The notes below the pieces were generated by a model. That model was not told the origin of the DNA. It did no database searches and saw nothing but the letters and a program-made list of their open reading frames with translations. Source: an uncultured Deferribacteraceae bacterium (GTDB lineage Bacteria > Chrysiogenota > Deferribacteres > CAMZNJ01). Taken from it: a DNA stretch of 64,000 nucleotides. A program made the position numbers and the translations under genes. Location: positions 12,555 through 76,554 of the forward strand of contig CAMZNS010000017.1 of assembly GCA_947313855.1 (NCBI GenBank). Reading direction: 5' to 3'. Positions 307 to 61,852 of the stretch are shown here, piece after piece. Within the stretch, counting starts at the first letter, position 1, and each line of letters begins with the position of its first letter.

Positions 307-1245
307 CTACTTCTGAGCTTGGAGGGTGTTGAAAACAGTGGATAGCATGGTGTCCATACCACCAAGGGGAACCATGTTCGCACCATCTGACAATGCCACA
401 TCAGGGTTCGGGTGAGTCTCGAAAAAGAACCCCTTAATACCGATGGACGCTGCCATGTTAGCATAATACGGAACATACTCCCTGTTGCCACCAGAGGAAT
501 CGCCCAACGACGACGGCTTCTGTACACTGTGAGTTGCATCTAAAATCAGGGGGATATTCGCCAATGACTCCATGTTGCCCATGTCGATCAAGTTGCGAAA
601 ATCAAGAACCAGATCACCGTAACCCATCATAGTCCCACGCTCCGTAAGCATAACCTTAGAATTACCACTCTCAACAACCTTCTGAACAGGGTTGACCATG
701 TTGGCACCGCTCAGAAACTGTGCCTTCTTGATATTCACAATGGCACCCGTCTTCGCCGAAGCAACAAGAAGATCGGTTTGACGACATAAAAATGCTGGTA
801 TCTGAATAATATCCGCAACCTCTGAGATGGCGTCCGCCTGATGGCTTTCGTGAATGTCAGTAACAATGGGAACGCCAAACTGTGTTTTTATCTTGGACAA
901 CACCTCTAAGCCTGCATCCAACCCCGGACCACGATGGGAATTGATGGACGTTCGGTTCGCCTTGTCGAATGAGCTCTTGAACACATAAACAAACCCGTAT
1001 TTAGCAGAAAGCTCCACCATCACCTCGCAAACTTGGCTCATGATGTCGTAGTCTTCGATGACACAGGTGCCCGCAAGAATAAAGGGGCGAGTTTGTAGGT
1101 TAGCGTAAAGTGCGTCTAGGGTTTCGACGTTCCTCGCGTTGTTGCTACCGCTACTGCCGCGACTACTGTGACTGCTACCGCTACTGCTGTGACTGCTACC
1201 GCTACTGCCGCTACTGCCGCTACTACTGTGACTGCTATGCATCAT
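307..1245 (-). CDS. kdsA: 3-deoxy-D-manno-octulosonate 8-phosphate synthase (metal-dependent type) with Ser/Gly/His-rich N-terminal extension
   Basis: Motifs AGTCVIE, FKSSFDKANRTS, QIPAFLCRQTDLL, LTERG, DATHSVQ, FFETHP..ALSDG; Cys/His/Glu/Asp metal ligands present; SD-like GAGGTG 8 nt upstream of ATG 1245. Confidence 0.95.
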   Translation of the reverse strand: MMHSSHSSSGSSGSSGSSHSSSGSSHSSRGSSGSNNARNVETLDALYANLQTRPFILAGTCVIEDYDIMSQVCEVMVELSAKYGFVYVFKSSFDKANRTSINSHRGPGLDAGLEVLSKIKTQFGVPIVTDIHESHQADAISEVADIIQIPAFLCRQTDLLVASAKTGAIVNIKKAQFLSGANMVNPVQKVVESGNSKVMLTERGTMMGYGDLVLDFRNLIDMGNMESLANIPLILDATHSVQKPSSLGDSSGGNREYVPYYANMAASIGIKGFFFETHPNPDVALSDGANMVPLGGMDTMLSTVFNTLQAQK

Positions 1246-1283
1246 TACTACTGCACCTCAACGGGCTAATATGTTTGTGTTCC

Positions 1284-2687
1284 TTAAAAGTATACATTCA
1301 GAGCCGTTGCAAACGATGTTGCATTTGTGGGGTACACATCTTTGAAGCTACCTCTGTTGGTTTCTGCGGTTACGCCAACATTGAAGTAGTTATTGATGAG
1401 GTATTCGGCGTGTGCTGAGAATTGGCTAGATTTGTCGGTTGGAACGTACGAGTAGGACGATTTGAATCGGAATCGTGAGTACAGTTCGTATTCAATGCCG
1501 GCGGTGACAACCTTGGCGTCGATATCCACATCTTCATCGTCCTCGGAGCCTTTGACCTCTTCCAAAACATCTTCCATGGCTTTGTTGGCGGAGTCTTGGA
1601 AGTAGTATTCAGCTGTGAGTCTCAGGTTGCCGCTGGAATATTCCGTCCCTGTTGATACCTGGTAAAAGAGTGGGTTTCCGTTCGGTTTCCCCTCTGGTGC
1701 AGTAAAGTTTACCTCCCGATTGAGGAAGTTGGATTCAGAGTCAGAGAGTTCGTTTGCACCGCTATTGAAGTAGGATATTTGGTGCATAGCCCCTTCGACG
1801 TAGAATCCGAAGGAGTAGAAGTGTTTTTCCAGGGAGCCACCGCCGTAGTTGCTTCGAGTTATCTTGCAGAGGTAGCCCACGTCCGTACCTAGCAGTCCGC
1901 AACGATTGATGGTGCCACCTTGGAGCTGAACGTCCACAGCTTCGGCATTAAGATTGGAGCGTACCATGATGGTTTTGCTACTTTCGTTGGTGGATAGTCC
2001 GTAGACAACGTTTATTTCGGAGAGCCCCACAGGGATATCCATACGCATAACGTCGATTCCGTAGCGGTATTCGGAGTTGAGGTAGATATTGTAGACGTCC
2101 AAGGGTGAGTACACGTTTGATGTACCGAGCCCAACGGGTTGGCGACCAACCTTGAGGTTAAAGTATGGTGATGGGATGTTTAGGTAAAGCCAGTCCATGT
2201 CGAAGTAGTAAATACCGGCTCCGTTGGGGAGGTATCCAGCTTTAGTAAAGTCTGCAATGCGATAGGTGGTATCGTTACGATTAACGTTCGCGGGGGCATC
2301 GTATGCGGGGAAATACTTGCTTGTTAGTAGGAAGGAGTCGTAAATAAATACTGCGTCAAAGCGATCCCCATCCTTGTCGTAAGGGTCAACTTCCCTTATT
2401 TGCAAAGCGATAGCACCCAACGTTGGTTGAGCGACAAAGCGTATGTAGTCGCCACCGATATCGAAAAGGAGTCTGTTGCCTGCCTCGAACTTGTTTGCAC
2501 GTGTTTCGAAGTAGTCGGTAAAGTCGATACCAATGCTTGTTGTCGACAGGTCAAGCATTGTGTCGGTGCCGATACTTGCGTAGTACCCATCTCCGTACTC
2601 TAGTGTTATTCCATATGCAGGCACTGCAGCGAAAGCTATCGTTGTACTAATTAGTAGTAAAATTAAATTCTTTTTCATTGCCATCAT
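1284..2687 (-). CDS. Putative outer-membrane beta-barrel protein (start uncertain: 2702/2687/2678)
   Basis: Signal peptide MKKNLILLLISTTIAFAA; aromatic alternating strands; GRQPVGLG motif; C-terminal Phe (ALNVYF); last gene of the LolA-like/ABC operon. Confidence 0.7.
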   Translation of the reverse strand: MMAMKKNLILLLISTTIAFAAVPAYGITLEYGDGYYASIGTDTMLDLSTTSIGIDFTDYFETRANKFEAGNRLLFDIGGDYIRFVAQPTLGAIALQIREVDPYDKDGDRFDAVFIYDSFLLTSKYFPAYDAPANVNRNDTTYRIADFTKAGYLPNGAGIYYFDMDWLYLNIPSPYFNLKVGRQPVGLGTSNVYSPLDVYNIYLNSEYRYGIDVMRMDIPVGLSEINVVYGLSTNESSKTIMVRSNLNAEAVDVQLQGGTINRCGLLGTDVGYLCKITRSNYGGGSLEKHFYSFGFYVEGAMHQISYFNSGANELSDSESNFLNREVNFTAPEGKPNGNPLFYQVSTGTEYSSGNLRLTAEYYFQDSANKAMEDVLEEVKGSEDDEDVDIDAKVVTAGIEYELYSRFRFKSSYSYVPTDKSSQFSAHAEYLINNYFNVGVTAETNRGSFKDVYPTNATSFATALNVYF

Positions 2688-3420: not shown

Positions 3421-5055
3421 TCATGACCTATCTGTTATATCAACATCTGTACATTTCTTCACGCCAACAAGATTTAAAACGGCAGATGCCACCCAGATAT
3501 AAATAAATGTTCCCCAGAAGTTGGACATACTTAGCCTAGCGTAAACACGTAGGTCGGAGAATTGGAAAAACAGCTCCGATATTTCGGACAAATTGAGTAT
3601 CTTAGCAAAATCAACACCGATACGCGAAAGGGGGATTAGCAACAAAAACGTTAGCAGGCTACCGATTACAGCACCCAAGAAACCGTAAAGAACACCCTCG
3701 ATCAAAATCTGCAAGCGTAAATAGGTTGGCGAAGAGCCCAACGAGAGGATTGTGGAAAATTCCCGTCTACGCTCAAAAACAGACAACAGAAATATATTCA
3801 AAATACCAAGGATTATCAAAAATATGAGCATGTACGTAATAACCTTGACCAATGCCCTGTCAAACGCAATAAACGACACTATCTCAGGCTTAATCTCATC
3901 CCAGCGGAAAACAGTGCGGGTATCCGTATTAAGGTAGCTCATGGCCGAATAAATACGCGGTAAGTTCTCAACAGCATCTATCTCAAGACCGATACGAGTG
4001 TACTCATCAGGCTCCATACCCAAAAGGGATCGAAGAGTCTCGCGATTGGTCAAAACAACACCGTCATCGTACTCACTACCACTTGTATCAAGAATCCCGT
4101 ATACGCGAAGGGATCGCATGCTCAACTCGCCACTCTTATCGCTAGCACCAACAACAACCCTACTACCAACACGAAGATTCAGCTTCTCAGCCAAATCAAC
4201 ACCGATAACAATGCGATTAGTCGTGGTCTCATCGATAAACTGACCGTCAACAATGCGACTCTTCAACGGAATAACCTGATCGAACATATCAAAATCTGTG
4301 GCACGAATGGAAACACTCTTGGTATTGTATGGCGACTGAACCACACCCGTTGCCAAAACATACGGCTTCACATAAGTAACACCCTTGATATTCGCAATCT
4401 CATCCAACTCACTTGCAGAAATATTAATGGTGTTGCCGTTGGACGGATACTCGTAGTAGGTAGGACTCTGAACAACAACAAAACCCTCGGTCGCCTTTAT
4501 GTTTTCAGAGATGAGCTTGTGGAAAAAACCTTCGCCGAGGCTAAGCCAAACCATGGTAAACGCCATACCAGCAGCAAGAGTTAGTATAATCGCAAGGGAG
4601 CGAAGCCTGTTACGCACCATGGTACGTATTGCCAAGCGGAAGATCATGGCGAGGTTGCTGCCAACGCCACCATGTTGCTCGGTGCCCTTGGGTTTGTGGG
4701 GCACTGACGCTGACGCTGACGCTGATGACGGCACTAACGCTGACGCTGATGACGGCACTGACGCTGATGACGGCACTGACGCTGACGCTGACGCTGATGA
4801 CGGCACTGACGCTGATGACGGCACTGACGCTGACGCTGATGACGGCACCGACGCTGATGACGGCACTGACGCTGACGCTGATGACGGCACTGACGCTGAC
4901 GCTGATGACGGCACCGACGCTGACGACGGCACTGACGCTGATGACGGCACTGACGAATGGGAATCGCTATGGCTGCCGCTACCATTATGATTATGATTAT
5001 GCTTATTCTTATCCTTATCGATGCGTCCTTCCAAGTTACTCTCGGGTCTAGCCAT
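3421..5055 (-). CDS. ABC transporter permease, LolE/FtsX (MacB-PCD) family, with ~135-aa low-complexity N-terminal extension
   Basis: LAIRTMVRNRLRS TM1 lead-in, periplasmic domain, ERRREFSTILSLG motif; ATG 5055 has GGGGG SD and overlaps the upstream stop. Confidence 0.88.
   Translation of the reverse strand: MARPESNLEGRIDKDKNKHNHNHNGSGSHSDSHSSVPSSASVPSSASVPSSASASVPSSASASVPSSASVPSSASASVPSSASVPSSASASASVPSSASVPSSASALVPSSASASASVPHKPKGTEQHGGVGSNLAMIFRLAIRTMVRNRLRSLAIILTLAAGMAFTMVWLSLGEGFFHKLISENIKATEGFVVVQSPTYYEYPSNGNTINISASELDEIANIKGVTYVKPYVLATGVVQSPYNTKSVSIRATDFDMFDQVIPLKSRIVDGQFIDETTTNRIVIGVDLAEKLNLRVGSRVVVGASDKSGELSMRSLRVYGILDTSGSEYDDGVVLTNRETLRSLLGMEPDEYTRIGLEIDAVENLPRIYSAMSYLNTDTRTVFRWDEIKPEIVSFIAFDRALVKVITYMLIFLIILGILNIFLLSVFERRREFSTILSLGSSPTYLRLQILIEGVLYGFLGAVIGSLLTFLLLIPLSRIGVDFAKILNLSEISELFFQFSDLRVYARLSMSNFWGTFIYIWVASAVLNLVGVKKCTDVDITDRS
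4700..4955. repeat. In-frame tandem array of 6/18/24-bp units (GACGCT; GATGACGGCACTGACGCT) encoding (SA)n-SVPS repeats
   Basis: Read directly from sequence. Confidence 0.95.
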
Positions 5056-7728: not shown

Positions 7729-7802
7729 CAACAAACTCCATGACGCTCCATGACGCTCCTCTACGCTATTGAATATATTTCAAAAACCTGATATTATTTT
7801 TA

Positions 7803-7856
7803 TTGAGCAACTGTCTCGGCTTGAGCAACTGTCTCGGCTTGAGCAACTGCCTCGGC
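7803..7856. repeat. 3 x 18-bp tandem repeat TTGAGCAACTG(T/C)CTCGGC
   Basis: Read directly; lies in the cytochrome 5' region. Confidence 0.9.
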
Positions 7857-8831: not shown

Positions 8832-10211
8832 GTGTCTTTCAAGACATTATCTGACTGCTCTTTACGGGTTCCTTCTGCATATTGCTCTGCATACTATTCT
8901 GCATACTATTCTGCATTGCTATTGCGATTGATATTTCGATTGATATTGCTATTGCCGTTCCTGTTTTTAGCAGCACTAACTTTAACCTCCAATACCTCCT
9001 TTGCCGACACGGACATTAGCCCTAATAGCAGACGTGTTGCGAATCTGAAGGAGATACGTGGAAAAGATATTGTTGATCAGTCCGACGTGGCTGTTCATCA
9101 ACTTTCACAAAGTGCTTTAAATAGCACACCTATTATTGTGCCCAAACTGACTATGCCCAAACGCAACAATATCACCGATTCACAATCCCCAACAGCACAC
9201 AACTGGCAACCACCCAAACTTCCAAACACCCTTGACGCACGCGAACTTGCCACCTATGGTGCACAATTCGACAATACCACCGACTCACAACTTGTGCTCG
9301 CGTACCTGCATATCGAACAGGGACACTACAACACTGCACTCAAAATCCTGAAAGAGGCATCTGTGCTGGAACCCTACGACAGTCGTATTCAGTTTTTGTC
9401 TGGCATAGCCTACCTCTTGTCTGGCTCCTACTACTCGGCAATCACTAGCCTCAACCGCTCACTGAAACTCCAAGAAGAGGCTCTAACCCAACCGAACACT
9501 GCCAACACTGCCAACACTGCCAACACCCTCTTTGACGCCCCCATCGCCCCGTGCACTTACTACGGACTTGCCATGGCTCAAACCCTTGCCGGCAGACACT
9601 CCCAAGCCTACAATACCACCACAGGGCTAATCAACTCATACAAAACAGCAACCACAACAGCAACCACAACAGCAACCGCCAACCTGCCACTACTCACACC
9701 CCAAAAAACAGGGATGACATGCTTTTACAACCTGCAAAAACAGGTACTTAACCTAATCCCCAACGGCGGTCTGTCGGATGCCTCCCTTCGCAAGGTGCAC
9801 CCCCTAGACACCAACATGCAACTCGCCATACTCTACTACCTGCGTGCAGTCATACTTAGCAACGCAAAATACTTTAACGACGCGGTGGAGGACGACAAAC
9901 AAGCCATCAAACTTGTGCCCAACGAAGTTGCATTCCAAAACCACCTCGCATACAACTACATGGAAGCGAAAGAGTTCCGAAAAGCGGTGGAGCAACAGTT
10001 ATCCATCATCGCTACCTTCGGCGGCTCAGCATACTCCTACAACGCCCTATCCCTAGCGTACACACTCTACGGAGCTCTGGAAAGTGACAACCACCTGTTT
10101 TACCAACAAAAAGCCAAGGAAGCCTCCTACAACGCCTGCTACTTCTACCAAGACTGCACGATGTACAACTCCATTAACAACGGCGACGTCTTTGTGGAAC
10201 AATTATATTGA
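8832..10211 (+). CDS. TPR-repeat protein with N-terminal hydrophobic segment (start uncertain; GTG 8832 after GAGG)
   Basis: TPR consensus in LAYLHIEQGHYNTALKIL..P...IQFLSGIAYLLSGSYYSAI and C-terminal repeats; internal 9- and 12-bp tandem repeats. Confidence 0.7.
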   Translation: MSFKTLSDCSLRVPSAYCSAYYSAYYSALLLRLIFRLILLLPFLFLAALTLTSNTSFADTDISPNSRRVANLKEIRGKDIVDQSDVAVHQLSQSALNSTPIIVPKLTMPKRNNITDSQSPTAHNWQPPKLPNTLDARELATYGAQFDNTTDSQLVLAYLHIEQGHYNTALKILKEASVLEPYDSRIQFLSGIAYLLSGSYYSAITSLNRSLKLQEEALTQPNTANTANTANTLFDAPIAPCTYYGLAMAQTLAGRHSQAYNTTTGLINSYKTATTTATTTATANLPLLTPQKTGMTCFYNLQKQVLNLIPNGGLSDASLRKVHPLDTNMQLAILYYLRAVILSNAKYFNDAVEDDKQAIKLVPNEVAFQNHLAYNYMEAKEFRKAVEQQLSIIATFGGSAYSYNALSLAYTLYGALESDNHLFYQQKAKEASYNACYFYQDCTMYNSINNGDVFVEQLY

Positions 10212-10281
10212 AAAAAAGACGCCTTGCCTGTATTATAAAATGAACACGTAACGAACCAATACGAAACATGTGAGAACAACA

Positions 10282-11145
10282 ATGAACCTTACCACCAACG
10301 AAACCATGAACAAATACACAACCCAACACCTCTACCAACAACCCATCTCGCTAGACGACAAATACAACATGGAAGACCTCGCCAACCTACTACACAACAC
10401 ATTCGCAAGACCATCATCATCGGCAACAACGGAAAATAACGACAACAACAGACATAGCCATCTGAACAATGACCATCTCAGCGGTAACGGTAACGGTAAC
10501 GGTCATGATGGCAACGGCGAACTCCGTACTGTAAACGTTGACCATGCCCGCAGTATCCTCAACCACCTCTTGGCATCATTGGAGTCCCACAGCACACACG
10601 GCACATACGACTCACACGACTCACACGGCGGCTTCCAACACCCTCACCCCACTGCCCCAACAGCCAAGACTACCGCTAACACCAACACTACCCACACCGC
10701 TGACGAACAGGTCACCATTCGCGTACACCGTGCCCCCAACGCCAAGCTCCCCACTTACGGGAGCACAGAGGCTGCTGGTGCCGATATTTCCGCACTAAAC
10801 GGTGGCGTCATCAACCCCGGTCAACGTGTTCTCATCGCCACAGGGCTACGTATGGAGATACCACAAGGGTACGAAATACAGATACGACCCCGTAGCGGTC
10901 TTGCCCTCAAAAAAGGTATCACCATGCTCAACACCCCCGGAACCATCGATAGCGACTACAGGGGCGAAATCGGACTCATCGCCATCAACCACTCCCAAGA
11001 AGTTTTCCGCTACGAAAAAGGTGACCGACTTGCACAGGCCATCGTTGCTCCCGTCTTGCGAGCAACGTTTGCGGATTCCACAGTCCAACCCCTTACTGCA
11101 TCAGAGCGTGGTAGCGGAGGGTTCGGCTCCACAGGGATTGGCTGA
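10282..11145 (+). CDS. dut: dUTPase with ~140-aa His/Asn/Thr-rich N-terminal extension
   Basis: Motifs AAGADI, QIRPRSGLA, NTPGTIDSDYRGEI, RLAQ, RGSGGFGSTG; no ATG/GTG immediately before the catalytic domain (~10705). Confidence 0.93.
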   Translation: MNLTTNETMNKYTTQHLYQQPISLDDKYNMEDLANLLHNTFARPSSSATTENNDNNRHSHLNNDHLSGNGNGNGHDGNGELRTVNVDHARSILNHLLASLESHSTHGTYDSHDSHGGFQHPHPTAPTAKTTANTNTTHTADEQVTIRVHRAPNAKLPTYGSTEAAGADISALNGGVINPGQRVLIATGLRMEIPQGYEIQIRPRSGLALKKGITMLNTPGTIDSDYRGEIGLIAINHSQEVFRYEKGDRLAQAIVAPVLRATFADSTVQPLTASERGSGGFGSTGIG

Positions 11146-11206: not shown

Positions 11207-12007
11207 ATGACATTTCAATACGGACACACCATTGTACTTGTAAATGAAAAGGGGCACAAACACCTCGTACCACTCAAAGAGGACGGCGTATTCCATACTC
11301 AGTACGGAACCATCACCCACGAAAGTATCTGCAGCTCCGGCGACGGTGCTCGCGTACTCACCTCCAAAAAACACCCCTACTTCGCATTCTCCCTCACCTA
11401 CTCCGACTTCGTAATGAATATCAAACGTAACGCACAAATCATCTACCCCAAAGACTCCTCCGTTATGATGACTTGGGGAGATATTTTCACCGGGGCAAAA
11501 GTCTTGGAAGCAGGTATCGGACAGGGTGCGTTATCCATCAAAATACTGCAATCCATCGGTGGCGACGGACTACTCGTCAGCTACGAAAAACGTGAGGACT
11601 TTGCACTACAATCACAAAAATTTATTCGCCAATACCTCGTCGAAAGCTCCAAAATACCACTCCCACTAGACAAAATGCACCGTGTGGAAGTACGTGATAT
11701 CTACGACGGAATTGAAGAAACTTTCGAACGAATCATGCTTGACCTACCCGAACCGTGGCAGGTTATCCCACACATGCACAACTCCCTGGAAGACGGCGGC
11801 ATTGTTGTGTCATACCTACCATCCATCATACAAGTATCCAAATACGTGGACGCATTGGAAGCATCAGGAATATTTCGAGAAATCGAAACCTTCGAACTAA
11901 TACTCAGACCATGGAAAGTTTCAGGACGTGCGGTACGACCCGAAATGTGGACATACAATCACTCCGCCTTCATCATCAAAGCTCGCAAAGTTGCTAAGGA
12001 ACAATAA
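11207..12007 (+). CDS. trmI: tRNA (adenine-58-N1)-methyltransferase
   Basis: QIIYPKD, VLEAGIGQGALS, LDLPEPW, HSAF motifs; true start MTFQYG at 11207 rather than ORF-track 10802. Confidence 0.9.
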   Translation: MTFQYGHTIVLVNEKGHKHLVPLKEDGVFHTQYGTITHESICSSGDGARVLTSKKHPYFAFSLTYSDFVMNIKRNAQIIYPKDSSVMMTWGDIFTGAKVLEAGIGQGALSIKILQSIGGDGLLVSYEKREDFALQSQKFIRQYLVESSKIPLPLDKMHRVEVRDIYDGIEETFERIMLDLPEPWQVIPHMHNSLEDGGIVVSYLPSIIQVSKYVDALEASGIFREIETFELILRPWKVSGRAVRPEMWTYNHSAFIIKARKVAKEQ

Positions 12008-17080: not shown

Positions 17081-18460
17081 TTACCGAATCTTTACTCGCA
17101 ACCAACTACCACGCCTGAAATAAACATACAAAATCACCGCAAAGACACCAAAACCGAAAAACTCACCAATATAAAACGCCTCCAAACCCAAGTCAAACGT
17201 GGACGCAACAATACCTGTTACTGGCAACACGAAAACCCACTGGCGAAGAGTTGTCGTCAACATCACAACCTTGGTCGCACCTGAACCGCGAATAAAACCT
17301 GTCATCAAAATCACATAAATCAACAAAGGCTGATTAATCGCGAAAATCAACACCGGTATCCTAGCCGCTGCCAAAACTTCAGCATCAGAGGTGTACACCA
17401 ACAAAATATAACTACCAGCAAACAAAAACAAGACGGTCATCAATAGTCCCCACGTAATCGCATAAACACTAGCTATACGACCAACCAACACCGCACGCTG
17501 ACTGTCACCCGCACCCAAAGACTGACCACACAACGCCGCCGACGCTATGGCCAAACCAACACCCGGCATAAACGATAACGACTCAATATTCAACAACATA
17601 GGCAAAGCCGCTTCCGAAGCTGTCTCAAGGTGGATTGCCAACATCACCAACAAAACATTAATCGACAAATTCACCATGAACTCCTCAGCAATAGTCGGTA
17701 CCCCCAAACGCAACACCTGACCACTAATACCACGTGTCGGACGCATCAAACGAACCTTTATACGAGTAACACCCTTATGAACAAAAAATATGTACAAATA
17801 TGCTGACGCCTCCAAATACCTAGCCAAAACAGTGGCAATAGCAGCACCCTTAACACCCAACTCTGGAAAAAACCAAAAACCCGTTATCAAAACATAGTTA
17901 CCAACAATATTGAACGCAATAGCAACAACAGCAATCTGCATGGGCAACTTAGTATTACCCAATGCACGCAAGGTTATCGCACCTGAAAATAGTATGAAAA
18001 ATGCCGGAATCGACAACAAAACAATGTAAACATAAGAAAGATACAGAGACTCAACAACAGGCTCAAAACGATAAAGCATCACCAAAACAGATATAATCGG
18101 AAGCAACACCAATACCAAAAGAATAGAAGCAAATATATTGAGACTGAAATTCTCCGAAATAACGCGACGAAGCTTAACCAACTTGCCTCCACCGTAGTAA
18201 CGTGCAATAATCGCCGCCGCACCGTAATTGAAACCGATAACAGTAAACATGGACGTGTACATCAACAAGTTCGCATAACCACTAGCCGACAACGCCTCCT
18301 TACCCAAAAACTGACCTATCATTACAACGTCAACAAAACTTATAAGCGTACGCAACAACATGTCAGCAACGGCTGGAGCAGCCATCAGCAATACTGTTTT
18401 CGACAGCTGGGGATTCTCACGAATTACGCGGGGGCGGGGGATATGTCTTGTCCAAATCAT
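17081..18460 (-). CDS. MATE family efflux transporter (tandem paralog)
   Basis: Same MATE motifs (LRALGNTKLPM, PELGVKGAAIAT); AGGAG SD. Confidence 0.9.
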   Translation of the reverse strand: MIWTRHIPRPRVIRENPQLSKTVLLMAAPAVADMLLRTLISFVDVVMIGQFLGKEALSASGYANLLMYTSMFTVIGFNYGAAAIIARYYGGGKLVKLRRVISENFSLNIFASILLVLVLLPIISVLVMLYRFEPVVESLYLSYVYIVLLSIPAFFILFSGAITLRALGNTKLPMQIAVVAIAFNIVGNYVLITGFWFFPELGVKGAAIATVLARYLEASAYLYIFFVHKGVTRIKVRLMRPTRGISGQVLRLGVPTIAEEFMVNLSINVLLVMLAIHLETASEAALPMLLNIESLSFMPGVGLAIASAALCGQSLGAGDSQRAVLVGRIASVYAITWGLLMTVLFLFAGSYILLVYTSDAEVLAAARIPVLIFAINQPLLIYVILMTGFIRGSGATKVVMLTTTLRQWVFVLPVTGIVASTFDLGLEAFYIGEFFGFGVFAVILYVYFRRGSWLRVKIR

Positions 18461-22363: not shown

Positions 22364-22736
22364 AGTATTCCTCCAAGGGTGTTTAATATTTAATATTTCT
22401 AATGTAAGGTGTGTATTTTGGTTAATTCGTGTGCACTGTTGTTCGTGTGCACTGTTGTTCGTGTGCACACACGAGTAAACTTTCACCTGCGTGCGGGTAC
22501 CACAAACATGCATTGCAATTGTAACACAAGAAAACGCTCCTTTCAATAACATAAATAGGTTTTCACAATATAATTATACAACTGCCTAATTATTTCGGCG
22601 TCAACCGCTAATAACCAATGTTCGTAAGCTTTCAGGCAACATCATCAAAGGGCACTACTTTGTCGCGTTATTTGATATTTGTCCCTGAACATAAAAATAG
22701 TATGGTAATATTTGTATCTATATTTTATAATGGATT

Positions 22737-25740: not shown

Positions 25741-25872
25741 CACGCCAGCACACCAGCACACCAGCACACGCCAGCTACGACCGTGACTTGACTACGCAAC
25801 CGCGACGCCAGCACACCAGCACACGCCAGCACACTCGAACACGCCAGCACACTCGAACACGCCAGCTACGAC
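25741..25872. repeat. Composite short tandem repeats (CACGCCAG/CACCAG; 18-bp ACACGCCAGCACACTCGA) at the convergent junction
   Basis: Read directly; includes duplicated pieces of the udp 3' end. Confidence 0.85.
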
Positions 25873-26699: not shown

Positions 26700-27266
26700 C
26701 TATTGGCTCACAGCGATGCTGTCCCCGTCGAGGACACCGTCCCCAAGACTGTCGCCAAGACCGTCGCCAAGACCGTCGCCAAGACCGTCGCCAAGACTGT
26801 CCCCAAGACCGTCGCCAAGACTGTCCCCAAGACTGTCGCCAAGACCGTCGCCAGAGACGAACGAAGTAGCGTTGCTGTCAACAACAGGGTACATACGCGT
26901 GGTAACAAGGGCTTGCTCACCGCTACCACTCTCCACTGTCACAGAGATACCCACATTGCCCGGCTCGATACCAAACACAACAACACGACTAGGCGACTCA
27001 GGATCAACTATTATAGCAGCCTTAGTGGTGTCAGATACCTCCCACGTGATGCTATCCAAAGACTTGTCACCGCCATTTGGTCCAAACGACCAACTCACTG
27101 TTAGTATCAAGCCATCTTCTGTGCCTATGGGTATGGACTCCCCAAGTCCAGCAATACGGACAAACCGTGTATCCTCAGAGTCTACGAACAAAGACTCCAA
27201 GTCCCCACAGGCAGTAACCGCAAGTAACAGAACCCCCAGTGTTGCAAATAAATATATCTTTTTCAT
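26700..27266 (-). CDS. Small surface lipoprotein: one Ig-like (Big_2-like) domain plus acidic (D-S/G-L-G)n tail
   Basis: Lipobox VTAC; ITWEVSDTTKA..V.GIEPGNVGISVTV Big_2 pattern; about nine 12-bp repeats at 26736-26852. Confidence 0.7.
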   Translation of the reverse strand: MKKIYLFATLGVLLLAVTACGDLESLFVDSEDTRFVRIAGLGESIPIGTEDGLILTVSWSFGPNGGDKSLDSITWEVSDTTKAAIIVDPESPSRVVVFGIEPGNVGISVTVESGSGEQALVTTRMYPVVDSNATSFVSGDGLGDSLGDSLGDGLGDSLGDGLGDGLGDGLGDSLGDGVLDGDSIAVSQ

Positions 27267-27359
27267 TATATGCTCCATAAGTTATTTTAAACTAAGAAAA
27301 CAAGCCTACATGAATAGCTTAGTAACGGTAATCTACCATGAATCTATGGAAAATCACCA

Positions 27360-31117: not shown

Positions 31118-31138
31118 GGGGCACTAACGTGCTCACCA

Positions 31139-31195
31139 CACGAAAAATTACCCACCGCACGAAAAATTACCCACCGCACGAAAAATTACCCACCA
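31139..31195. repeat. 3 x 19-bp tandem repeat CACGAAAAATTACCCACC(G/A)
   Basis: Read directly. Confidence 0.9.
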
Positions 31196-34384: not shown

Positions 34385-34643
34385 TGTACACCTCTTATTT
34401 TTCAGTAGACAAATTATTACACAGTAATATATGCACTCAATGTCACAAAGCAACCTCCCTAGCTAGCATTTTCACAAATAATTCACAAAAAAAAGGGGGG
34501 GCGATTGTGATTCAACTTAACTGAAGATATGCCAAGGGGAACAATAATCAAGAACCGCCAAGAACCGCCAAGCAGGCTTACCCTTTCGCAGTTACTTGAT
34601 ATTTTTCATAACGAACAACAGGAACGGTGTTATAAAAAAAGTG

Positions 34644-37469: not shown

Positions 37470-37581
37470 CAGTACCATGTTTACGCAGCATTTATTTGTA
37501 GCGGAACACAAACATGGTACTGTGGCAACACTTATTTGTCGCGGAACACAAACATGGTACTGTATCGACACAGTACCATGT
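37470..37581. repeat. REP-like cluster of alternating inverted and direct copies of ACATGGTACTG(T)
   Basis: 13-bp inverted pair 37470-37482/37510-37522; 32-bp direct repeat 37492-37523/37532-37563; perfect 12-bp hairpin 37552-37581. Confidence 0.8.
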
Positions 37582-37658
37582 GGCTTCATGCCTCATACGC
37601 TCATGCCTCATACGCTCATGCCTCAAACCCAACAATAACAGCCTGTATCGCTAAAAAC

Positions 37659-39596: not shown

Positions 39597-39653
39597 AAAA
39601 GCCACTGATTACGGTTTTACATTGATAATGTAAAACATAATCGGTGGCTTTTT
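39597..39653. terminator. Long bidirectional intrinsic terminator between convergent genes
   Basis: AAAAGCCACTGATTA..GTTTTACATT-GAT-AATGTAAAAC..TAATCGGTGGCTTTT. Confidence 0.8.
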
Positions 39654-39730
39654 GCGTCGGTGGATGTGCGTCGGTGGATGTGCGTCGGTGGATGTGGCGT
39701 CGGCGGATGCTGCGTCGGTGGATGCTGCGT
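39654..39730. repeat. ~5 x 14-16-bp tandem repeat GCGTCGGTGGATGT
   Basis: Read directly. Confidence 0.9.
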
Positions 39731-39758: not shown

Positions 39759-40814
39759 CTAATCATCATAAAGATAAATAGACTCCGGATGGTGCGTAAA
39801 TATAAACCCCTGCGAATAGCTCAAACTAAACTCGTGATTATCAAGAACTTTCAAGGCAGATGAACTATCCTCATTGCGATTGTCACTGTAACCACGCAAT
39901 ATCAGGCTATCAGAGGCAAGGGGGAGAGACATCGATATTGTTTCCGACTCCAATAAGGTCGAAATAACACCAAGGTCGTCACTACGTGCATACTGGCTCG
40001 CACCAAAAATATGGGTCGCACCAACACCTTCACCCAAATCCTTACGTATAATGTTGGCAATATACTTGCGAACACCCACAACCAAATTTGAAAAAACAAT
40101 ATGATAAAAGTAGTACCCCTTGTAATCATGGCTATCCAACAACAACCTGAGGGTCGAACTGGCAGCTTCACCCAAGGTAAACAAACCCAAAGGAGCAACA
40201 TCAACATTGCCCATGGTCCCCTCAAAGATACCCCCCTCAATGTGGGACAATGGGCTCGACTCGGTGAGGCTCGACTCGGTGAGGCTCGTCGCTGGATGAA
40301 AATAATCGGGTATGTTGCGAAATGGTGGCACCAAAGAACGACGGAAAAGAAGAGTATGCTGACGACCCGAAGACAAATCCCCCGAATAAAACATCTCCGG
40401 AACCTGACTCAATAATAAAAAATTGCCACTACTTTGTGCATAAAAATAACCGTACCTGTAGCTAATATCTACCAACTTATTGCTCACAATATCCTTGAGA
40501 ATAGATCGGTACGTTTGGTTTGGACCATTATCCAACAGCTCCAAATAACCCTGAGGAGATAAACCACGATTTTTGTAACCCCACTGCTCGATAACAGCAG
40601 TTTGATCCAAAATAGCATTAATACTGTCTAACGTAAGGGGTATAACGCCACTCTTTGCACCGAAAAACGGAGGCACAGGGGTCGACACCGAAGGGGGATG
40701 CTCCGAGGGTGAATCAACAAACTGCAACGACGCAATAGCATCACCACTATGACTTTTATAAGGACAAGTACAACCACCCATAACCCCTCCTGCTTTAAAC
40801 GCACAAATAGCCAT
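39759..40814 (-). CDS. Hypothetical protein
   Basis: 351-aa ORF with G/T-ending codons like its neighbours; in-frame 15-bp duplication (LTESSLTESS); no confident family. Confidence 0.6.
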   Translation of the reverse strand: MAICAFKAGGVMGGCTCPYKSHSGDAIASLQFVDSPSEHPPSVSTPVPPFFGAKSGVIPLTLDSINAILDQTAVIEQWGYKNRGLSPQGYLELLDNGPNQTYRSILKDIVSNKLVDISYRYGYFYAQSSGNFLLLSQVPEMFYSGDLSSGRQHTLLFRRSLVPPFRNIPDYFHPATSLTESSLTESSPLSHIEGGIFEGTMGNVDVAPLGLFTLGEAASSTLRLLLDSHDYKGYYFYHIVFSNLVVGVRKYIANIIRKDLGEGVGATHIFGASQYARSDDLGVISTLLESETISMSLPLASDSLILRGYSDNRNEDSSSALKVLDNHEFSLSYSQGFIFTHHPESIYLYDD

Positions 40815-43494: not shown

Positions 43495-43562
43495 AATACT
43501 AGCACACTAACTACGCACACAACCGCACACAACCGCACACACCTGCAAAACGGAGAACAACT

Positions 43563-43987: not shown

Positions 43988-44092
43988 GGAACGGTGACGC
44001 GGTGATGACGATGGCGGCGACGCGGTGATGACGCGGTGATGGCGGTGACGGTGACGCGGTGATGACGCGGTGATTACGATGACGGTGACGGA
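43988..44092. repeat. Degenerate GACGCGGTGAT / GGTGAC tandem array between flgC and fliE
   Basis: Read directly. Confidence 0.85.
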
Positions 44093-44354
44093 AAAAATTT
44101 CCCGACAAAACAAAACACACCTGAAAATTACAAGTAGTGCACAGAAATCGGATACAAAAATAATTATCAAAACTATTCACATTTTCCAAAAAGTGTGATA
44201 TATTAGAACAACATAACCGTAGCCGACTTCTAAACAAATACTGAACCAACCACAGAAGAGAACACTCTTCAAGAAAGAGATAACACCCTTTAAACAAGGT
44301 GAACAACCAAGGTTGAACAAACAAAGTTGAACAACCAACAAGTTAACCTGAAAA

Positions 44355-44684: not shown

Positions 44685-44760
44685 TAATCGCTCTTAAAAT
44701 AGTGTAGGTGGTGGCAGTATTTGTCACCACCATCCCAACCCCCCCCGCAACTTCCACCGC

Positions 44761-44880
44761 ATCGCCCCCCGCAACTTCCATCGCCAATCGCAATCGCATC
44801 GCCCCCCGCAACTTCCATCGCCAATCGCAATCGCATCGCCCCCCGCAACTTCCATCGCCAATCGCATCGCCCCCCGCAAC
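44761..44880. repeat. 37-bp tandem repeat (~3.3 copies) with C6 tracts between fliE and fliF
   Basis: ATCGCCCCCCGCAACTTCCATCGCCAATCGCAATCGC at 44761 and 44798, shortened copy at 44835. Confidence 0.9.
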
Positions 44881-47840: not shown

Positions 47841-48920
47841 ATGATAGTTATTCGTGGCAAATCACCCAAAAAAGATGACGACAAAGGTACTTTTGAAAAA
47901 ACCGTTTTCTGTGAAGTAAGACGAGGTGAAGCCGGTATCAACTACATCGACATCATGGACGAAGATTATACCAAATCTAACTCCGGATACCGACGTTTCC
48001 CCGCAATGCCCGACGGTAGACGATTACCACCATCAAAAATACACTTCGCCGGAGAACGACTACCCGACGGAAACTCCGACAAATGGTGGGATCTAGAAAA
48101 CTCATTCCTCGGAAAACAACCACCCGATATCAAAAACCTCGAAACATACCTACTACCACTACAAAATAGCGACGACTACGCTTACGACTACACCGGAGCC
48201 CTCGCAACAATAGGACTAAACTCGTCCATTGTAGACAACAGAGACACTACCATACAAGAAAACAACACCGAAACACAAGAAGACCTAAGCACACTCGTCC
48301 AATCCGTCGAAACAAAAATAAACCGTATTGCCGAACTAGAAGCAAACCTCGAAACATCTCTAAACGAAAACGAAACCCTAAACAAAGAGATACAAGAACT
48401 CAGAGCGGTCATCAAAGAAAAAACTGCCGTGGACATCAACGCCATGGAGCAAAACTCATACGACAAAGGATACGCCGAAGCCAAAGAGAAATACGACAGA
48501 GAATTCAAAATCGAAGAAGAAAACTACAAAGCAAACCTAGACGAATCCTTGAGAATAACGCGAGAAAATATCGACGAAATCAACAACAAACTCAAAGATG
48601 TTGACCGTATGATGCCCATGTTTATTCTCGACTTCGTACGCGAAATAATCGGCGTTGAACGCAAAATTAACGACAAACTAATACTCAATGTTATCAGAAA
48701 TAATATGGAAAAATTGGAAAGCTTCGCCGAAATGAAAATTGTTGTTAACCCAGCAGACATGGACACTGTGCAGGAAACATTCCCCGAAATACCCCTAGAC
48801 AGCTCCCCTGATGTCAGTCGTGGTGGGTTCCGAGTTGAAACTAATATCGGAGAAGTGGACTTCACCATCGAATCACTGCTGGAAGGGCTACGGGCACAAA
48901 TTTATGAATCACTTGAGTAA
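47841..48920 (+). CDS. fliH: Flagellar assembly protein FliH, unusually long
   Basis: YDKGYAEA coiled-coil and C-terminal IVVNPADM..VSRGGFRVETNIGEVDFTIE; position between fliG and fliI. Confidence 0.8.
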   Translation: MIVIRGKSPKKDDDKGTFEKTVFCEVRRGEAGINYIDIMDEDYTKSNSGYRRFPAMPDGRRLPPSKIHFAGERLPDGNSDKWWDLENSFLGKQPPDIKNLETYLLPLQNSDDYAYDYTGALATIGLNSSIVDNRDTTIQENNTETQEDLSTLVQSVETKINRIAELEANLETSLNENETLNKEIQELRAVIKEKTAVDINAMEQNSYDKGYAEAKEKYDREFKIEEENYKANLDESLRITRENIDEINNKLKDVDRMMPMFILDFVREIIGVERKINDKLILNVIRNNMEKLESFAEMKIVVNPADMDTVQETFPEIPLDSSPDVSRGGFRVETNIGEVDFTIESLLEGLRAQIYESLE

Positions 48921-50475
48921 GCTTTATCGCGTCAAACCAGCAAAATACACACCACCACTCTCCGGTCGCGTCATCGGCATCAAAGGGCTAGTCATTGAAG
49001 CTGATGGACCACTACTGAGCCTCGGAACCCGTTGTGTGGTGCAGTGCGACAAAGGGGGAACCCTATGCGAAATCATCGGCTTTGGCAAAAACAAGGTCTT
49101 CCTCATGCCATTTGGAACCCTAGACGGCATCGCACCCAACTACAAGGTTGAAAGCTTGCCCACATCCAGTGCAGCCATTACCGTGCATGAGGGTATGCTG
49201 GGCACAGTACTTGACGGGCTAGGTCAACCGTTTGGCACGTTCGACTTTGGCGTTCCCGCACCATACGACTCGCCTGAACATGCAAAGGATGATCGCGGGC
49301 ACTCTAGCACCCAACCGTCCGCAACGTCCGCAACGTCCATCACCGCAACGTCCGCAACGTCCGCACCGTCCGCACCGTCCATCACCGCAACGCAACGCGA
49401 CCCCAAGGTCATGCCACTCTACGCCGGTGCACCCGATCCCCTAACCCGATCCATCATCAAGGAACCCATCTACACAGGGGTGAAGGCTATCGATGGTTTA
49501 CTAACTATGGGTAGCGGTCAGCGTGTGGGTATTTTTGCTGGTTCAGGTGTTGGTAAGTCGGTGCTTTTGGGGATGATTGCCCGCCAAACCACGGCTGATA
49601 TTAACGTCATCGCCCTTGTTGGCGAGCGTGGTCGTGAAGTGAAGGAGTTTATTGAGAACGACTTGGGTGTTGAGGGTCTTAAACGCAGTGTGATTATTGT
49701 GGCAACGAGTGACACCTCACCACTACTACGTCGTAGTGCTCCATTTGTTGCCACAGCTGTGGCGGAATATTTTGCATCCAAGGGGAATCGTGTTATGCTG
49801 ATGATGGATTCCCTCACACGGTTTGCCATGGCACAGCGTGAGATAGGTTTGTCCGCTGGCGAGCCCCCCACTAGCAAGGGTTACCCCCCTTCAGCTTTCA
49901 GCTACTTCCCACGCCTTTTGGAGCGTGCAGGTACAACTTCGGGTAAGGGCTCCATTACGGCAATCTACACTGTGCTTGTTGAGTCGGACGACATGAATGA
50001 TCCTGTTGCGGATAGTGTTCGCTCCATCATCGACGGCCATATCGTACTGGATCGTGCCCTTGCCGCCAAAAACCACTTCCCCTCAATCAGAATCATGTCC
50101 TCCGCAAGCCGAGTTATGAAGTCGGTCATCAACAAAGAACACGACACCCTTGCAGGCAGAATCAAACAGCTCTACTCCGACTACTTAGGGGCAGAAGACC
50201 TCATCAATATCGGTGCTTACGCAAGTGGTAGCAATCGAAATATTGACGAAGCACGAAGCAAAATCGATAGCATTAATGCATTCCTCAAGCAGGATCTACA
50301 CGAAACATTTACCATTGAAAACACACTGGAACAGATGACTCGAATAGTTGGAGCAGTGCCGCCCACGGGGGGGAGTATCCAAGCTCAGCAGATTGCTCAG
50401 GCTCAACAAGCTCAACAAGCACAGCAGGCTCGACAAGCACAGCAGGCTCAACAAGCACAGCAGGCTCAAAAATAA
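48904..50475 (+). CDS. fliI: Flagellar export ATPase FliI with two low-complexity insertions
   Basis: Walker A GSGVGKS, ALVGERGREV, DSLTRFAMAQREIGL..GEPP..KGYPPS, IIDGHIVL. Confidence 0.96.
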   Translation: MNHLSKLYRVKPAKYTPPLSGRVIGIKGLVIEADGPLLSLGTRCVVQCDKGGTLCEIIGFGKNKVFLMPFGTLDGIAPNYKVESLPTSSAAITVHEGMLGTVLDGLGQPFGTFDFGVPAPYDSPEHAKDDRGHSSTQPSATSATSITATSATSAPSAPSITATQRDPKVMPLYAGAPDPLTRSIIKEPIYTGVKAIDGLLTMGSGQRVGIFAGSGVGKSVLLGMIARQTTADINVIALVGERGREVKEFIENDLGVEGLKRSVIIVATSDTSPLLRRSAPFVATAVAEYFASKGNRVMLMMDSLTRFAMAQREIGLSAGEPPTSKGYPPSAFSYFPRLLERAGTTSGKGSITAIYTVLVESDDMNDPVADSVRSIIDGHIVLDRALAAKNHFPSIRIMSSASRVMKSVINKEHDTLAGRIKQLYSDYLGAEDLINIGAYASGSNRNIDEARSKIDSINAFLKQDLHETFTIENTLEQMTRIVGAVPPTGGSIQAQQIAQAQQAQQAQQARQAQQAQQAQQAQK

Positions 50476-51002: not shown

Positions 51003-51641
51003 ATGACCGCAATAACACTACATAACAAACAAACTTCAACAAAAAAAATCGCTACAACAGCACTACGCACAACTCGCACAACTCGCACAGCCCTCACAGC
51101 CCTCACAGCCCTCACAGCCCTCACAGTACTACTCGCACTAACCAGCACCCCCGCAAAAGCACTCGCCGAAGGGGAACCAACAGGCACAAACGCCGTTGTC
51201 AACCTCGATTGCAGCGGACTGGAAGGGTACGCCCTAAGCCTCGAATCCCGTGCACGAAAAATCGAAGCAGACGAACTTAGCCTCAGACAACGAATGGCCG
51301 CTCTAGAGCAGTTCCAACAATCAATAAACCAACAACGATCACAAGTCACCGCTCTACAAAACATTGTAAACGACAAGCTGGCTCAAATACAAACCATTGA
51401 AGACGAACGACTCGCACAACTCGCACAGATGATGTCAGGGACTGCACCAAAATCCGCCGCAGCAATATTGGAAAACATGGATCCGCAAGATGCCGCCGCT
51501 ATTCTCTCCATGACGTCAAAGTCGGTCTCAGGGAACATCATGACAGCCATTGGCAAGCAAAACCCCAAATTCGGTGCCGATGTGTCACTATACTTCACGC
51601 CAGACAGAGCCTTCTCCGATGCCATCAACAGCCAACCGTAA
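51003..51641 (+). CDS. MotE/FlbB (MgtE-N-like) flagellar accessory protein
   Basis: Signal/TM segment, coiled coil, LAQMMSGTAPKSAAAILENMD..AAAIL repeat; usual position after fliJ. Confidence 0.7.
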   Translation: MTAITLHNKQTSTKKIATTALRTTRTTRTALTALTALTALTVLLALTSTPAKALAEGEPTGTNAVVNLDCSGLEGYALSLESRARKIEADELSLRQRMAALEQFQQSINQQRSQVTALQNIVNDKLAQIQTIEDERLAQLAQMMSGTAPKSAAAILENMDPQDAAAILSMTSKSVSGNIMTAIGKQNPKFGADVSLYFTPDRAFSDAINSQP

Positions 51642-51715
51642 CACTGATGAACACAGCAAGCACCCTCGCCTACAACTATGCCACAACTATGCCACAACTA
51701 TGCCACACACCTCCC

Positions 51716-57368: not shown

Positions 57369-57421
57369 CTGAAATTGAAATTGAAATTGAGATTGAATTT
57401 GAATTTGAAATTGAATTTCAG
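57369..57421. repeat. ~8 x 6-bp (TTGAA[A/T]) microsatellite bounded by inverted CTGAAATT/AATTTCAG
   Basis: Read directly. Confidence 0.85.
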
Positions 57422-57589: not shown

Positions 57590-57875
57590 CACGCAGCCAC
57601 CACAGCCACCACGTCACACAGCCACCACGTCACACAGTCACCACGTCACCACGCAACAACGCAACACCGTCACCATGCAACAACGCAACACCGTCACCAC
57701 GTCACACCGTCACCACGCAACAACGCAACAACGCAACACCGTCACCATGCAACACCGTCACACCGTCACACCGTCACACCGTCACCACGCAACAACGCAA
57801 CACCGTCACCATGCAACACCGTCACACCGTCACACCGTCACACCGTCACACCGTCACACCGTCACACCGTCACCC
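57590..57875. repeat. ~285-bp satellite built from CACCGTCA and CAACGCAA 8-mers
   Basis: Read directly; fills the tRNA-lptG convergent gap. Confidence 0.9.
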
Positions 57876-60191: not shown

Positions 60192-60235
60192 CCGCCGATT
60201 AATCCTATCGTATTATTTGTCAGTGATGACGGGGC

Positions 60236-61852
60236 TCAGTCCCCTTCCATGAAACTGCCCAATGCTAGGTACTGGTAGGTTGCGTACAGCAATAAGCTAC
60301 TATCAGACATGGTCAGAATATCACCTGTTGAGACCCTTGCAAGGGGGGGGGTATGCTGTGCATTCATTGTACCCCATATCGGTGTAGATTGGTAGTGGTT
60401 AAATACCTGCGGGGCAGACTCGGTAAGCAGTGAGGCAGCTTCGTCTGTTACCGCTAGCTTCAACTTTGTTCGCAAACATGGTGCAAAACCTTGCGTAGCC
60501 AACTTGCATGAGTACTGGTAAGGTCGGTTCGTGTTTACGATGAGAACCGACGCCTCCACACTTTCTGAGACTGTTGCTGTTGGTAGACAGATTATGCTCC
60601 CCACGTTGCTTTGGGCGGGAGCATCACCTGTGCCGTACTGTGGTGCAAGAAGCCATATGTTCTGGAGGAACGCCCCCTCGCCATCTTCAGGGGATCCCAA
60701 ACCATCCCAACAGGCACCACCAAGGGAAACAAGAGGGGCTTGGTGGAGCCCCATGATATGGTAGCTCTCCTTGGCATAGGTGGCTGCAACACCTTGCCAA
60801 TACGAATTAGCATTAACACCAGCATCAGCACCCACAACACCATAGGTGTACGCACCGTACATGGCGTCCAAACGTTGCAACACCAACGCCTTCAAATACG
60901 CATCCGAACCCGAACCACTACTGTAATCCTTTAGCATCTCACCGTAAAGGGACTCCTTCAAAGACTCCATACCACGCAAACCCCTAGTAGACAACGGCAA
61001 AATATCAACCGTACTCCCATCCACACCACCAATCAACTCGGAAGTCTCCACCAGCAACACAGCAATATCCATTGCCGAATACGTAATCAACAACGTGGGC
61101 ACACCCTCAATAATGTAACGCAACTGAACCCACTTAACATAATCACAGTAGGCACCAGCACTCGAAACACTAATACCATCGTAAGGGTAGCCGCTCGAAC
61201 CGTACCTGCACAAACCACTCAACTGACGAAAAACAACTTGCACATTACTGCGAATACTGTCCAAGCTTGTGATGGGGTATGTTGGTGTTCCCGTAAGGCT
61301 ACTGTTGTACAGGGCATAACTACTGCGTATGGTGGCAATGTCGAGACGGCGAACAACACTCTGCAACAGTGAAACATCGATACCGCTAGCATACGAATTG
61401 CGAAGTAGGTGTGTGTAATTGTACGGCAACATATTCGCCGAAGGGGTACGCAACTCATGCAAAGGGATGGGAAGACGCTCCAACGCCTCCACGTAGATAA
61501 CCTGCTCACACTGCCAACAGTAGGTGCGACCACTCCTCGCAAAGGTGCGATTCAGGGCTTTCGCCGACGCAAGGGCATTGCGAAGAATACTATTGTACTC
61601 TGCAGATATGGACGCCAATCCTTGAGAACCAAGAGCCGAAGCGGGGATAGTAACGGAGGCGTTGTACATGAGTTCCGCCGTTTCTTCATCAACAAAAACA
61701 GGGGTAGTGGTGGCGGTGACGGTAGTGTTGGCAAGCACCACCCCTGTTGCCACGACCATGCACACAGTACCAAGAAACACTCCACGAAACACACCACGAA
61801 ACACACCACGAACTGCATCTAACATCATAACAATTAACCTCAGAACTGCCAC
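60236..61852 (-). CDS. Hypothetical exported protein
   Basis: 538-aa ORF coupled between mnmA and lptF; hydrophobic leader containing (RGVF)3 from a 12-bp repeat; no recognisable family. Confidence 0.6.
   Translation of the reverse strand: MAVLRLIVMMLDAVRGVFRGVFRGVFLGTVCMVVATGVVLANTTVTATTTPVFVDEETAELMYNASVTIPASALGSQGLASISAEYNSILRNALASAKALNRTFARSGRTYCWQCEQVIYVEALERLPIPLHELRTPSANMLPYNYTHLLRNSYASGIDVSLLQSVVRRLDIATIRSSYALYNSSLTGTPTYPITSLDSIRSNVQVVFRQLSGLCRYGSSGYPYDGISVSSAGAYCDYVKWVQLRYIIEGVPTLLITYSAMDIAVLLVETSELIGGVDGSTVDILPLSTRGLRGMESLKESLYGEMLKDYSSGSGSDAYLKALVLQRLDAMYGAYTYGVVGADAGVNANSYWQGVAATYAKESYHIMGLHQAPLVSLGGACWDGLGSPEDGEGAFLQNIWLLAPQYGTGDAPAQSNVGSIICLPTATVSESVEASVLIVNTNRPYQYSCKLATQGFAPCLRTKLKLAVTDEAASLLTESAPQVFNHYQSTPIWGTMNAQHTPPLARVSTGDILTMSDSSLLLYATYQYLALGSFMEGD

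Follow-up and report, generated by a model that had tools for sequence, protein, structure and literature searches.

Typical bacteria carry a handful of variable-number tandem repeat (VNTR) or minisatellite loci per genome, and the contingency loci of Haemophilus, Neisseria and Campylobacter are built from 1-7 nt units that shift the reading frame or the promoter spacing of surface genes. In Ehrlichia ruminantium, tandem repeats undergo active expansion and contraction; the process is described as directed mainly at non-coding DNA, and the genome has with about 64% the lowest coding density among bacteria (PMC10710844). Portiera aleyrodidarum of Bemisia tabaci contains 111 tandem repeats in 357 kb (3.1 per 10 kb), which have been linked to the loss of dnaQ, and genome instability after dnaQ loss is described for the Portiera of both Bemisia tabaci and Singhiella (PMC7821994). 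A study of Sodalis found that replication slippage favours GC-rich sequence (PMC4948707). Here, we describe a dense set of tandem arrays in a stretch of 64,000 nt from an uncultured Deferribacteraceae bacterium (GCA_947313855.1, contig CAMZNS010000017.1; the whole stretch is called the window). This is a known kind of genome instability in a new lineage, the Deferribacterota, and it is very probably best explained by unusually active replication slippage in combination with purifying selection.

The named relatives of the FliI protein encoded in the window belong nearly all to the Deferribacterota and show 51-57% identity; a single closer one (91%) comes from GCA_947313785.1. An 82-kb contig of that genome, independently assembled from another sample, served as the sister sequence: its positions 5374-69972 are fully collinear with the window at a nucleotide identity of 89%. 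Based on the GC content of 46%, on a species pair at about 87-89% identity, as described from the midgut of Rimicaris exoculata (PMC9636832), and on the occurrence of this DNA in 'epibiont metagenome' runs of 2022, the window organism is probably 'Candidatus Rimicarispirillum', a midgut symbiont of Rimicaris shrimp. This host-restricted lineage has genomes of 1.25-1.36 Mb compared to 2.2-3.3 Mb in relatives (PMC9636832).

Arrays were called with Tandem Repeats Finder (TRF) over the whole window. The first pass returned 96 rows with a score of at least 30, which merged to 49 arrays under stricter penalties; 25 of them reach a score of at least 50, with a share of 3.0% of the bases. Markov shuffles of the window (30 of order 3 and 30 of order 5) yielded a mean of 0.1 and a maximum of 1 array at this score, which places the head-to-tail copies of short units far above chance (25 arrays vs 0.1). 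An earlier note on this DNA, made from the letters alone, had counted more than 25 separate arrays, and nearly all of the sites it had named were recovered (1143, 4704, 7736, 7803, 8886/8915, 9495, 9644, 22426, 26736, 31134, 34549, 39653, 40253, 43514, 44745, 49308, 50401, 51066, 51672, 57370, 57594 and 61769). Two sites need correction. The potB array proposed at about 55852 is visible in the alignment as an imperfect, weak two-copy repeat, but received no TRF call, and the array at 26736 is real and lies in a lipoprotein gene, but this gene is encoded on the minus strand (26700-27278) and is not a plus-strand open reading frame (ORF).

Control DNA comprised 14 loci with a total of 284 kb, in which 5 arrays reached a score of at least 50. 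Four of these arrays were found in ten unrelated loci from distant phyla (L001-L010, 170 kb), which came from a FliI-based contig scan and were used purely as controls, none in 50 kb of E. coli K-12 and one in the syntenic flagellar operon of Deferribacter desulfuricans, Denitrovibrio and a Deferribacterales metagenome-assembled genome (MAG) (64 kb in total). The resulting density per 10 kb was 3.9 for the window and 4.5 for the sister, compared to 0-0.5 for the flagellar operon of the three other Deferribacterota and 0 for E. coli; the window value corresponds to about 20 times that of the control bacteria. The repeat density is much above that of related stable genomes and is common to the lineage, as both window and sister show it. 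Within the window, there are 0.20 arrays per kb of coding and 2.0 per kb of non-coding DNA, a tenfold higher density in spacers. By reading of the gene map, 5 non-coding arrays lie between convergent genes, 4 between divergent and 7 between co-directional ones, and of the five convergent spacers in the window, four bear arrays.

These features place the window close to several described systems. As in E. ruminantium, a small (about 1.3 Mb), host-restricted bacterium carries many unrelated tandem repeats with active expansion and contraction across strains. In contrast to the non-coding-targeted repeats of that genome with its roughly 64% coding sequence, the coding density of the window is ordinary (87.7%) and about one-fifth of its genes carry in-frame arrays; the lineage (Deferribacterota) and the lifestyle in the gut lumen and at the microvilli differ as well. 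The greatly expanded intergenic DNA that E. ruminantium and Portiera have in common is not found here. With Portiera, the window shares an equal or higher repeat density (3.9-4.5 vs 3.1 per 10 kb), a mainly intergenic location and purifying selection at the level of genes, but whereas Portiera shows rearrangements, 30-40% intergenic DNA and the loss of dnaQ and other repair genes, the window is collinear with its sister and has modest spacers. The head-to-tail units of 6-70 nt, the copy changes by whole units and the preference for GC-rich sequence resemble the VNTR or minisatellite loci of multiple-locus VNTR analysis and the slippage observed in E. coli and Sodalis (PMC4948707). However, deletion is the outcome reported for Sodalis (PMC4948707), while the retained genes show net insertion here. 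Finally, the repeats are hypermutable as in the contingency loci, but in contrast to these, the coding arrays of the window cannot shift the frame and their host genes are mostly housekeeping genes.

Inside genes, the arrays follow the reading-frame filter that the earlier note had suggested. Considering arrays with a score of at least 48, and with gene starts refined by Pfam domain positions and N-terminal translations, the period was divisible by 3 in all 11 coding arrays of the window, but in only 4 of 16 non-coding ones (Fisher p=1.8e-4). The sister replicated this result with 17 of 18 coding vs 3 of 11 non-coding arrays (p=3e-4), and its sole exception is a TRF consensus artefact of a (QQA)n tail. 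A similar picture emerged from insertions and deletions (indels) of at least 6 nt between window and sister, of which 47 of 56 were divisible by 3 in coding DNA and 26 of 77 in non-coding DNA (34%, the random expectation). Five coding arrays are located at relative positions of 0.00-0.15 in their proteins, one at 0.97 and the rest in linkers. Since the difference in density between spacers and genes exceeds the threefold of a pure frame filter, the position in the protein also matters. The arrays inside genes are as follows (called by TRF unless stated otherwise):

1143..1237, minus strand: in-frame array with periods of 9, 12, 21 and 30 in the His/Ser/Gly-rich N-terminal tail of KdsA; 30 nt longer in the sister, with a 6-mer x12.8
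4704..5019, minus strand: 18/42-mer array and 6-mers, (SVPSSASA)n N-terminal extension of a LolC/E-like FtsX permease
8886..8955, plus strand: 12-mer and 6-mer arrays at the 5' end (signal-peptide region) of a TPR protein; window 36 nt longer than the sister
9495..9526, plus strand: 9-mer x3.6 within the TPR protein, (NTA)n
9644..9677, plus strand: 12-mer x2.8 within the TPR protein, (TATT)n; one unit shorter in the sister
10482..10627, plus strand: 6-mer and 9-mer arrays, N-terminal extension of dUTPase; 18-mer x3.6 in the sister
26736..26858, minus strand: 12-mer x10.2, (GDGL/GDSL)n C-terminal part of the lipoprotein; evident from codon-phase substitutions and the sister orthologue, window about 75 nt longer
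40253..40288, minus strand: 15-mer x2.4 within a 351-aa protein of unknown function; 129 nt in the sister, 93 nt more and in frame
49308..49392, plus strand: 9/33-mer array within the FliI insertion, from the alignment; 39 nt shorter in the sister
50401..50469, plus strand: 9/18-mer array, (QQA)n C-terminal tail of FliI; tail 5 residues shorter in the sister
51066..51126, plus strand: 9-mer arrays in the N-terminal region of a MotE-like protein; 12-mers in the sister
61769..61812, minus strand: 12-mer x3.7, (VFRG)n at the N-terminus of a 538-aa protein; window 12 nt longer than the sister

Several of these arrays deserve a closer description. In kdsA, no alternative start codon was found between the array and the DAHP_synth_1 domain. 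The array in the FtsX permease gene makes the window 252 nt longer than the sister, with all differences being multiples of 3, and the extension is presumably translated, given that its frame is open and that the stop codon of the gene upstream overlaps with an ATG. The first FliI array lies in a lineage-specific insertion of about 50 residues, which in the alignment separates the N-terminal barrel from the ATPase domain. In the AlphaFold model, residues 116-164 have a predicted local distance difference test (pLDDT) score of about 30 (<50) and lack secondary structure, compared to a mean pLDDT of 80.7 for the rest of the protein, and the insertion is thus predicted to be disordered.

Outside genes, arrays of any period were found in all types of spacers:

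7736..7759: 10-mer x2.4 in a divergent spacer, with the unit cleanly duplicated once and CTCC microhomology at its flanks; one copy in the sister
7803..7856: 18-mer x3.0 in a divergent spacer; absent from the sister
22426..22468: 16-mer x2.7 in a divergent spacer upstream of the PFOR gene; absent from the sister
25745..25866: 8-mer and 18-mer arrays that take up a convergent spacer; here the sister has a 31-mer array
31134..31194: 19-mer x3.2 in a convergent spacer; 19-mer x4.1 in the sister, with a species-specific unit
34549..34572: 10-mer x2.4 in a divergent spacer
37485..37625: 40-mer x2.0 and 15-mer x2.7 in the sdaA-alsT spacer
39653..39730: 14-mer x5.4 in a convergent spacer; the sister has another unit, over 121 nt
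43514..43541: 10-mer x2.8 in the flgB-flgC spacer; identical in both species
43995..44090: 11/34-mer array in the flgC-fliE spacer
44295..44338: 14-mer x3.2 in the flgC-fliE spacer; 19 nt there in the sister
44745..44880: 37-mer x3.1 in the fliE-fliF spacer; 18-mer x7.1 at the same site in the sister, a different unit
51672..51707: 11-mer x3.3 in a 74-nt convergent spacer; absent from the sister
57370..57415: 6-mer x7.7 upstream of potA; absent from the sister, with extra copies in minor contigs of run X1
57594..57874: nested 8/16/64/72-mer array of 281 nt in the lptG-potA spacer; 101 nt in the sister, copy number in the window as assembled

The earlier note had also proposed an ongoing local duplication process, and both expansion and contraction are indeed seen between window, sister and strain. 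We scored the link between arrays and indels by overlap with TRF arrays; a stricter test for adjacent copies flagged 14 of 133 indels and was judged too strict. Of 1212 coding indel bases (indels of at least 6 nt, window vs sister), 1045 (86%) fall into arrays, which make up about 3.6% of the sequence. Genes with a change in array length are kdsA, the FtsX permease gene, the TPR gene, dut, trmI, sdaA, fliI, the MotE-like gene, potA, potB and rnhB. Less than half of the array sites are shared between the two genomes (12 of 27 in the window, 13 of 29 in the sister). At 7736, the birth of an array can be read directly, as a 10-nt duplication bounded by the 4-nt microhomology CTCC stands against a single copy in the sister. 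Changes in copy number are exemplified by potB, with 2 copies in the window and 3 in the sister, and by the TPR 12-mer, which differs by one unit. In the 19-mer array at 31134, several substitutions are fixed in every copy within each species, indicating concerted evolution. Weak two-copy 9-mers inside genes have the same length in both genomes, and the 10-mer array at 43514 does not differ between them either, which indicates that instability sets in mainly at about three copies or more.

Evidence at the strain level came from Logan contigs of three runs that hold this DNA. Copy number differs at orthologous sites not only between the species, but also between related strains: in run X2, a strain with about 97.5% identity carries one extra 6-mer (+6 nt) at 8914. 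In contigs of run X1, the likely source run, the dut 9-mer array is 9 nt longer (+9) and the MotE-like 9-mer array 18 nt shorter (-18) than in the window; otherwise these contigs match perfectly, with short arrays reproduced base for base and no base differences elsewhere. Minor contigs of the same run contain extra 6-mers at 57370. The Logan contigs break at nearly every array.

To assess selection, we compared 49 genes between window and sister. All 49 are intact, and the pooled dN/dS (ratio of non-synonymous to synonymous substitution rates) is 0.10 at a dS of 0.41; selection on the protein sequence is efficient. The repeat load is therefore better explained by a high mutational input than by a general relaxation of selection. 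With respect to the direction of length change, nine flagellar proteins show 166 lineage-specific inserted vs 19 deleted residues in comparison to three outgroup Deferribacterota, and the spacers of the flagellar operon sum up to about 994 nt, compared to 136 nt in Deferribacter and 432 nt in Denitrovibrio (2-7x longer). No directional length difference was found between window and sister (1247 vs 1846 extra nt). The idea that spacers and proteins are expanding is consequently borne out for the flagellar region, but not by the coding density of the window nor by its comparison with the sister. In the same way, the proposed opposition to the usual deletion bias holds for the local net gain, but not for the lineage, whose genome is reduced (1.25-1.36 Mb vs 2.2-3.3 Mb). 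Together, ordinary coding density, lack of direction and genome reduction point to a rapid turnover with local net gain rather than to a reversal at the genome scale.

The repeat units were also compared with each other. No k-mer was shared across units beyond composition (P 0.43-0.69), in line with the claim that the units are mostly unrelated and do not derive from one mobile element. The GC content of the units is 55% vs 46% for random pieces of the same length (P<0.0005), an excess that is also present in the sister and matches the preference of slippage for GC-rich sites (PMC4948707). Likewise, the A+C/G+T skew of the units amounts to 0.205 vs 0.151 for random pieces (P=0.005), with 0.226 vs 0.146 in the sister. 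Three other identities were rejected for the arrays: a mobile element, miniature inverted-repeat transposable element (MITE) or CRISPR, because the units have no common k-mer beyond composition; frameshift switches, because all coding arrays have a period divisible by 3 and none is able to shift the frame; and promoter switches, because non-coding arrays are found in every type of spacer, including convergent ones.

Taken together, we propose the following model. During replication, the nascent strand would realign on a nearby microhomology and thereby duplicate the intervening 6-70 nt. From two copies upwards, further slippage or unequal exchange adds or removes whole units; the data show this step in the copy-number differences between strains, the homogenisation within a lineage and the appearance or disappearance of arrays at many sites. 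Selection purges arrays that break the frame or disturb folded protein cores, a step that is visible as a pattern: the survivors in genes have periods that are multiples of three and are located in tails at either terminus, in signal peptides or in a disordered linker, while spacers of every type accept any period, at ten times the coding density. In this model, the high density would reflect a raised mutational input and not a general collapse of selection, with amino-acid substitutions still being strongly constrained. The earlier note had named slippage and end-joining side by side. Slippage or unequal exchange fits better than end-joining, as the arrays are multi-copy and show concerted evolution.

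Several points weigh against this model. The claim of a raised input is based on a comparison with about 64 kb of related free-living and 220 kb of unrelated DNA. The array at 43514 is identical across species, although the flanking DNA is about 10% diverged, so not every array is unstable; a constraint may act on this one, for instance if it belongs to a leader or to a translation-initiation region. Just one microhomology-flanked birth (7736, CTCC) is cleanly seen, the others being too diverged to read. The differences of +9 and -18 nt in run X1 could be assembler effects. Lastly, contigs break at arrays longer than about 31 nt (4704, 26736, 44745 and 57594), and the lengths given for these sites are those of the window assembly.

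The source of the raised input might lie in replication or repair. It is conceivable, if on balance doubtful, that a lesion in one of these processes gives rise to an insertion-leaning minisatellite regime while selection on amino acids stays efficient (dN/dS 0.10). Candidates that may have been lost or weakened are the proofreading subunit of Pol III, single-strand exonucleases that suppress slipped misalignment, and flap processing. The two symbiont genome papers (PMC9636832 and PMC10344455) mention neither repeats nor repair genes in their main text, and their supplements, searched for repair-gene terms only, returned nothing. If such a lesion exists, the lineage would be the third phylogenetically independent case in which repeat instability across the genome is tied to a defined defect in repair, and an extracellular gut symbiont would be continually inventing protein tails and linkers through in-frame repeats.

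Among the alternatives, ordinary slippage under relaxed selection survives best, but we regard it as unlikely. Here, the small population of a symbiont would let slightly deleterious arrays drift to fixation, as could be expected for a host-restricted lineage with a reduced genome (PMC9636832) and for arrays that occupy tolerant protein positions. However, the low dN/dS and the 49 intact genes show that selection is not generally relaxed. Moreover, the arrays reach their highest density in spacers (2 per kb), where they should be close to neutral in every bacterium, but the spacers of related genomes are almost free of them, and over half of the array sites differ between the sisters at a dS of 0.41.

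The arrays might also be selected as contingency loci or adaptive regions, acting as phase-variation switches or as tunable disordered tails in the interaction with the host. Several proteins with arrays, namely the TPR protein, the lipoprotein, the MotE-like protein and the 538-aa protein, are exported, and lengths vary between strains, but the coding periods divisible by 3 preclude a frame shift and cytoplasmic housekeeping enzymes carry arrays as well (KdsA, dUTPase and FliI, in the sister also TrmI, PotA and SdaA). Five non-coding arrays lie in convergent 3'-3' spacers without a promoter and the encoded peptides are mutually unrelated, which makes this explanation highly improbable. An origin of the arrays in the metagenome assembler or in binning is least credible of all: Logan contigs do end at almost all arrays, their copy numbers deviate from the window in two cases and long arrays exceed the k-mer length, but short arrays are identical in the independent X1 contigs, the independently assembled sister shares 12-13 of the array sites and obeys the same frame rule, in-frame periodicity in genes is not expected from an artefact, and short-read assemblers collapse repeats rather than invent them.

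Active slippage under purifying selection has several implications. The combination of very high repeat turnover and efficient selection on proteins provides a clean natural test of mutational input against selection on protein length, and makes the lineage a candidate for finding a gene whose loss destabilises short repeats. The variable low-complexity segments, including those of KdsA, dUTPase and FliI, are potential very fine strain markers for the transmission of symbionts between shrimp. For MAG assemblies of this lineage, fragmentation and mis-annotation at arrays have to be expected, such as over-extended ORF starts and the uncalled MotE-like gene of the sister. In this region (L011 12034-12645), the public calls are two short minus-strand ORFs where the window has a plus-strand MotE-like gene; the repeat region has probably led to a wrong annotation here.

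Further observations were made on individual genes. The dUTPase gene (10270-10720) has no start codon near the domain; with the nearest ones, the protein gains at least about 45 N-terminal residues, among which His, Thr and Ser are frequent, and the call in the sister measures 299 aa and has no Pfam match on record. The TrmI protein of the sister reads past the stop position of the window (11994-12007) into a 126-nt C-terminal extension (sister contig 17408-17533), which consists of two different 9-mer arrays. FliH (47841-48920) has 359 aa in the window and 360 aa in the sister, compared to 258-290 aa in Deferribacter and Denitrovibrio, and the long part N-terminal of the FliH domain contains no detectable array. 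Directly 5' of the ATG of mlaE, about 166 nt of non-repetitive sequence are present in the sister (28449-28620) and absent from the window (22731-22736); the mlaE call of the sister spans this stretch and is 328 aa long compared to 261 aa in the window.

According to Pfam, the gene set of the window is ordinary for a Gram-negative flagellated anaerobe and includes kdsA, LolCDE/LolA, PFOR, Mla, PTS, flgBC-fliEFGHIJ, potABCD, lptFG, mnmA and rnhB. Over its full length (1-64000), the plus strand shows a very strong asymmetry with an excess of C over G (GC skew down to -0.39) and of A over T (AT skew up to +0.40). This asymmetry peaks over plus-strand genes and is lowest over minus-strand genes, so that replication- and transcription-linked components seem to be additive.

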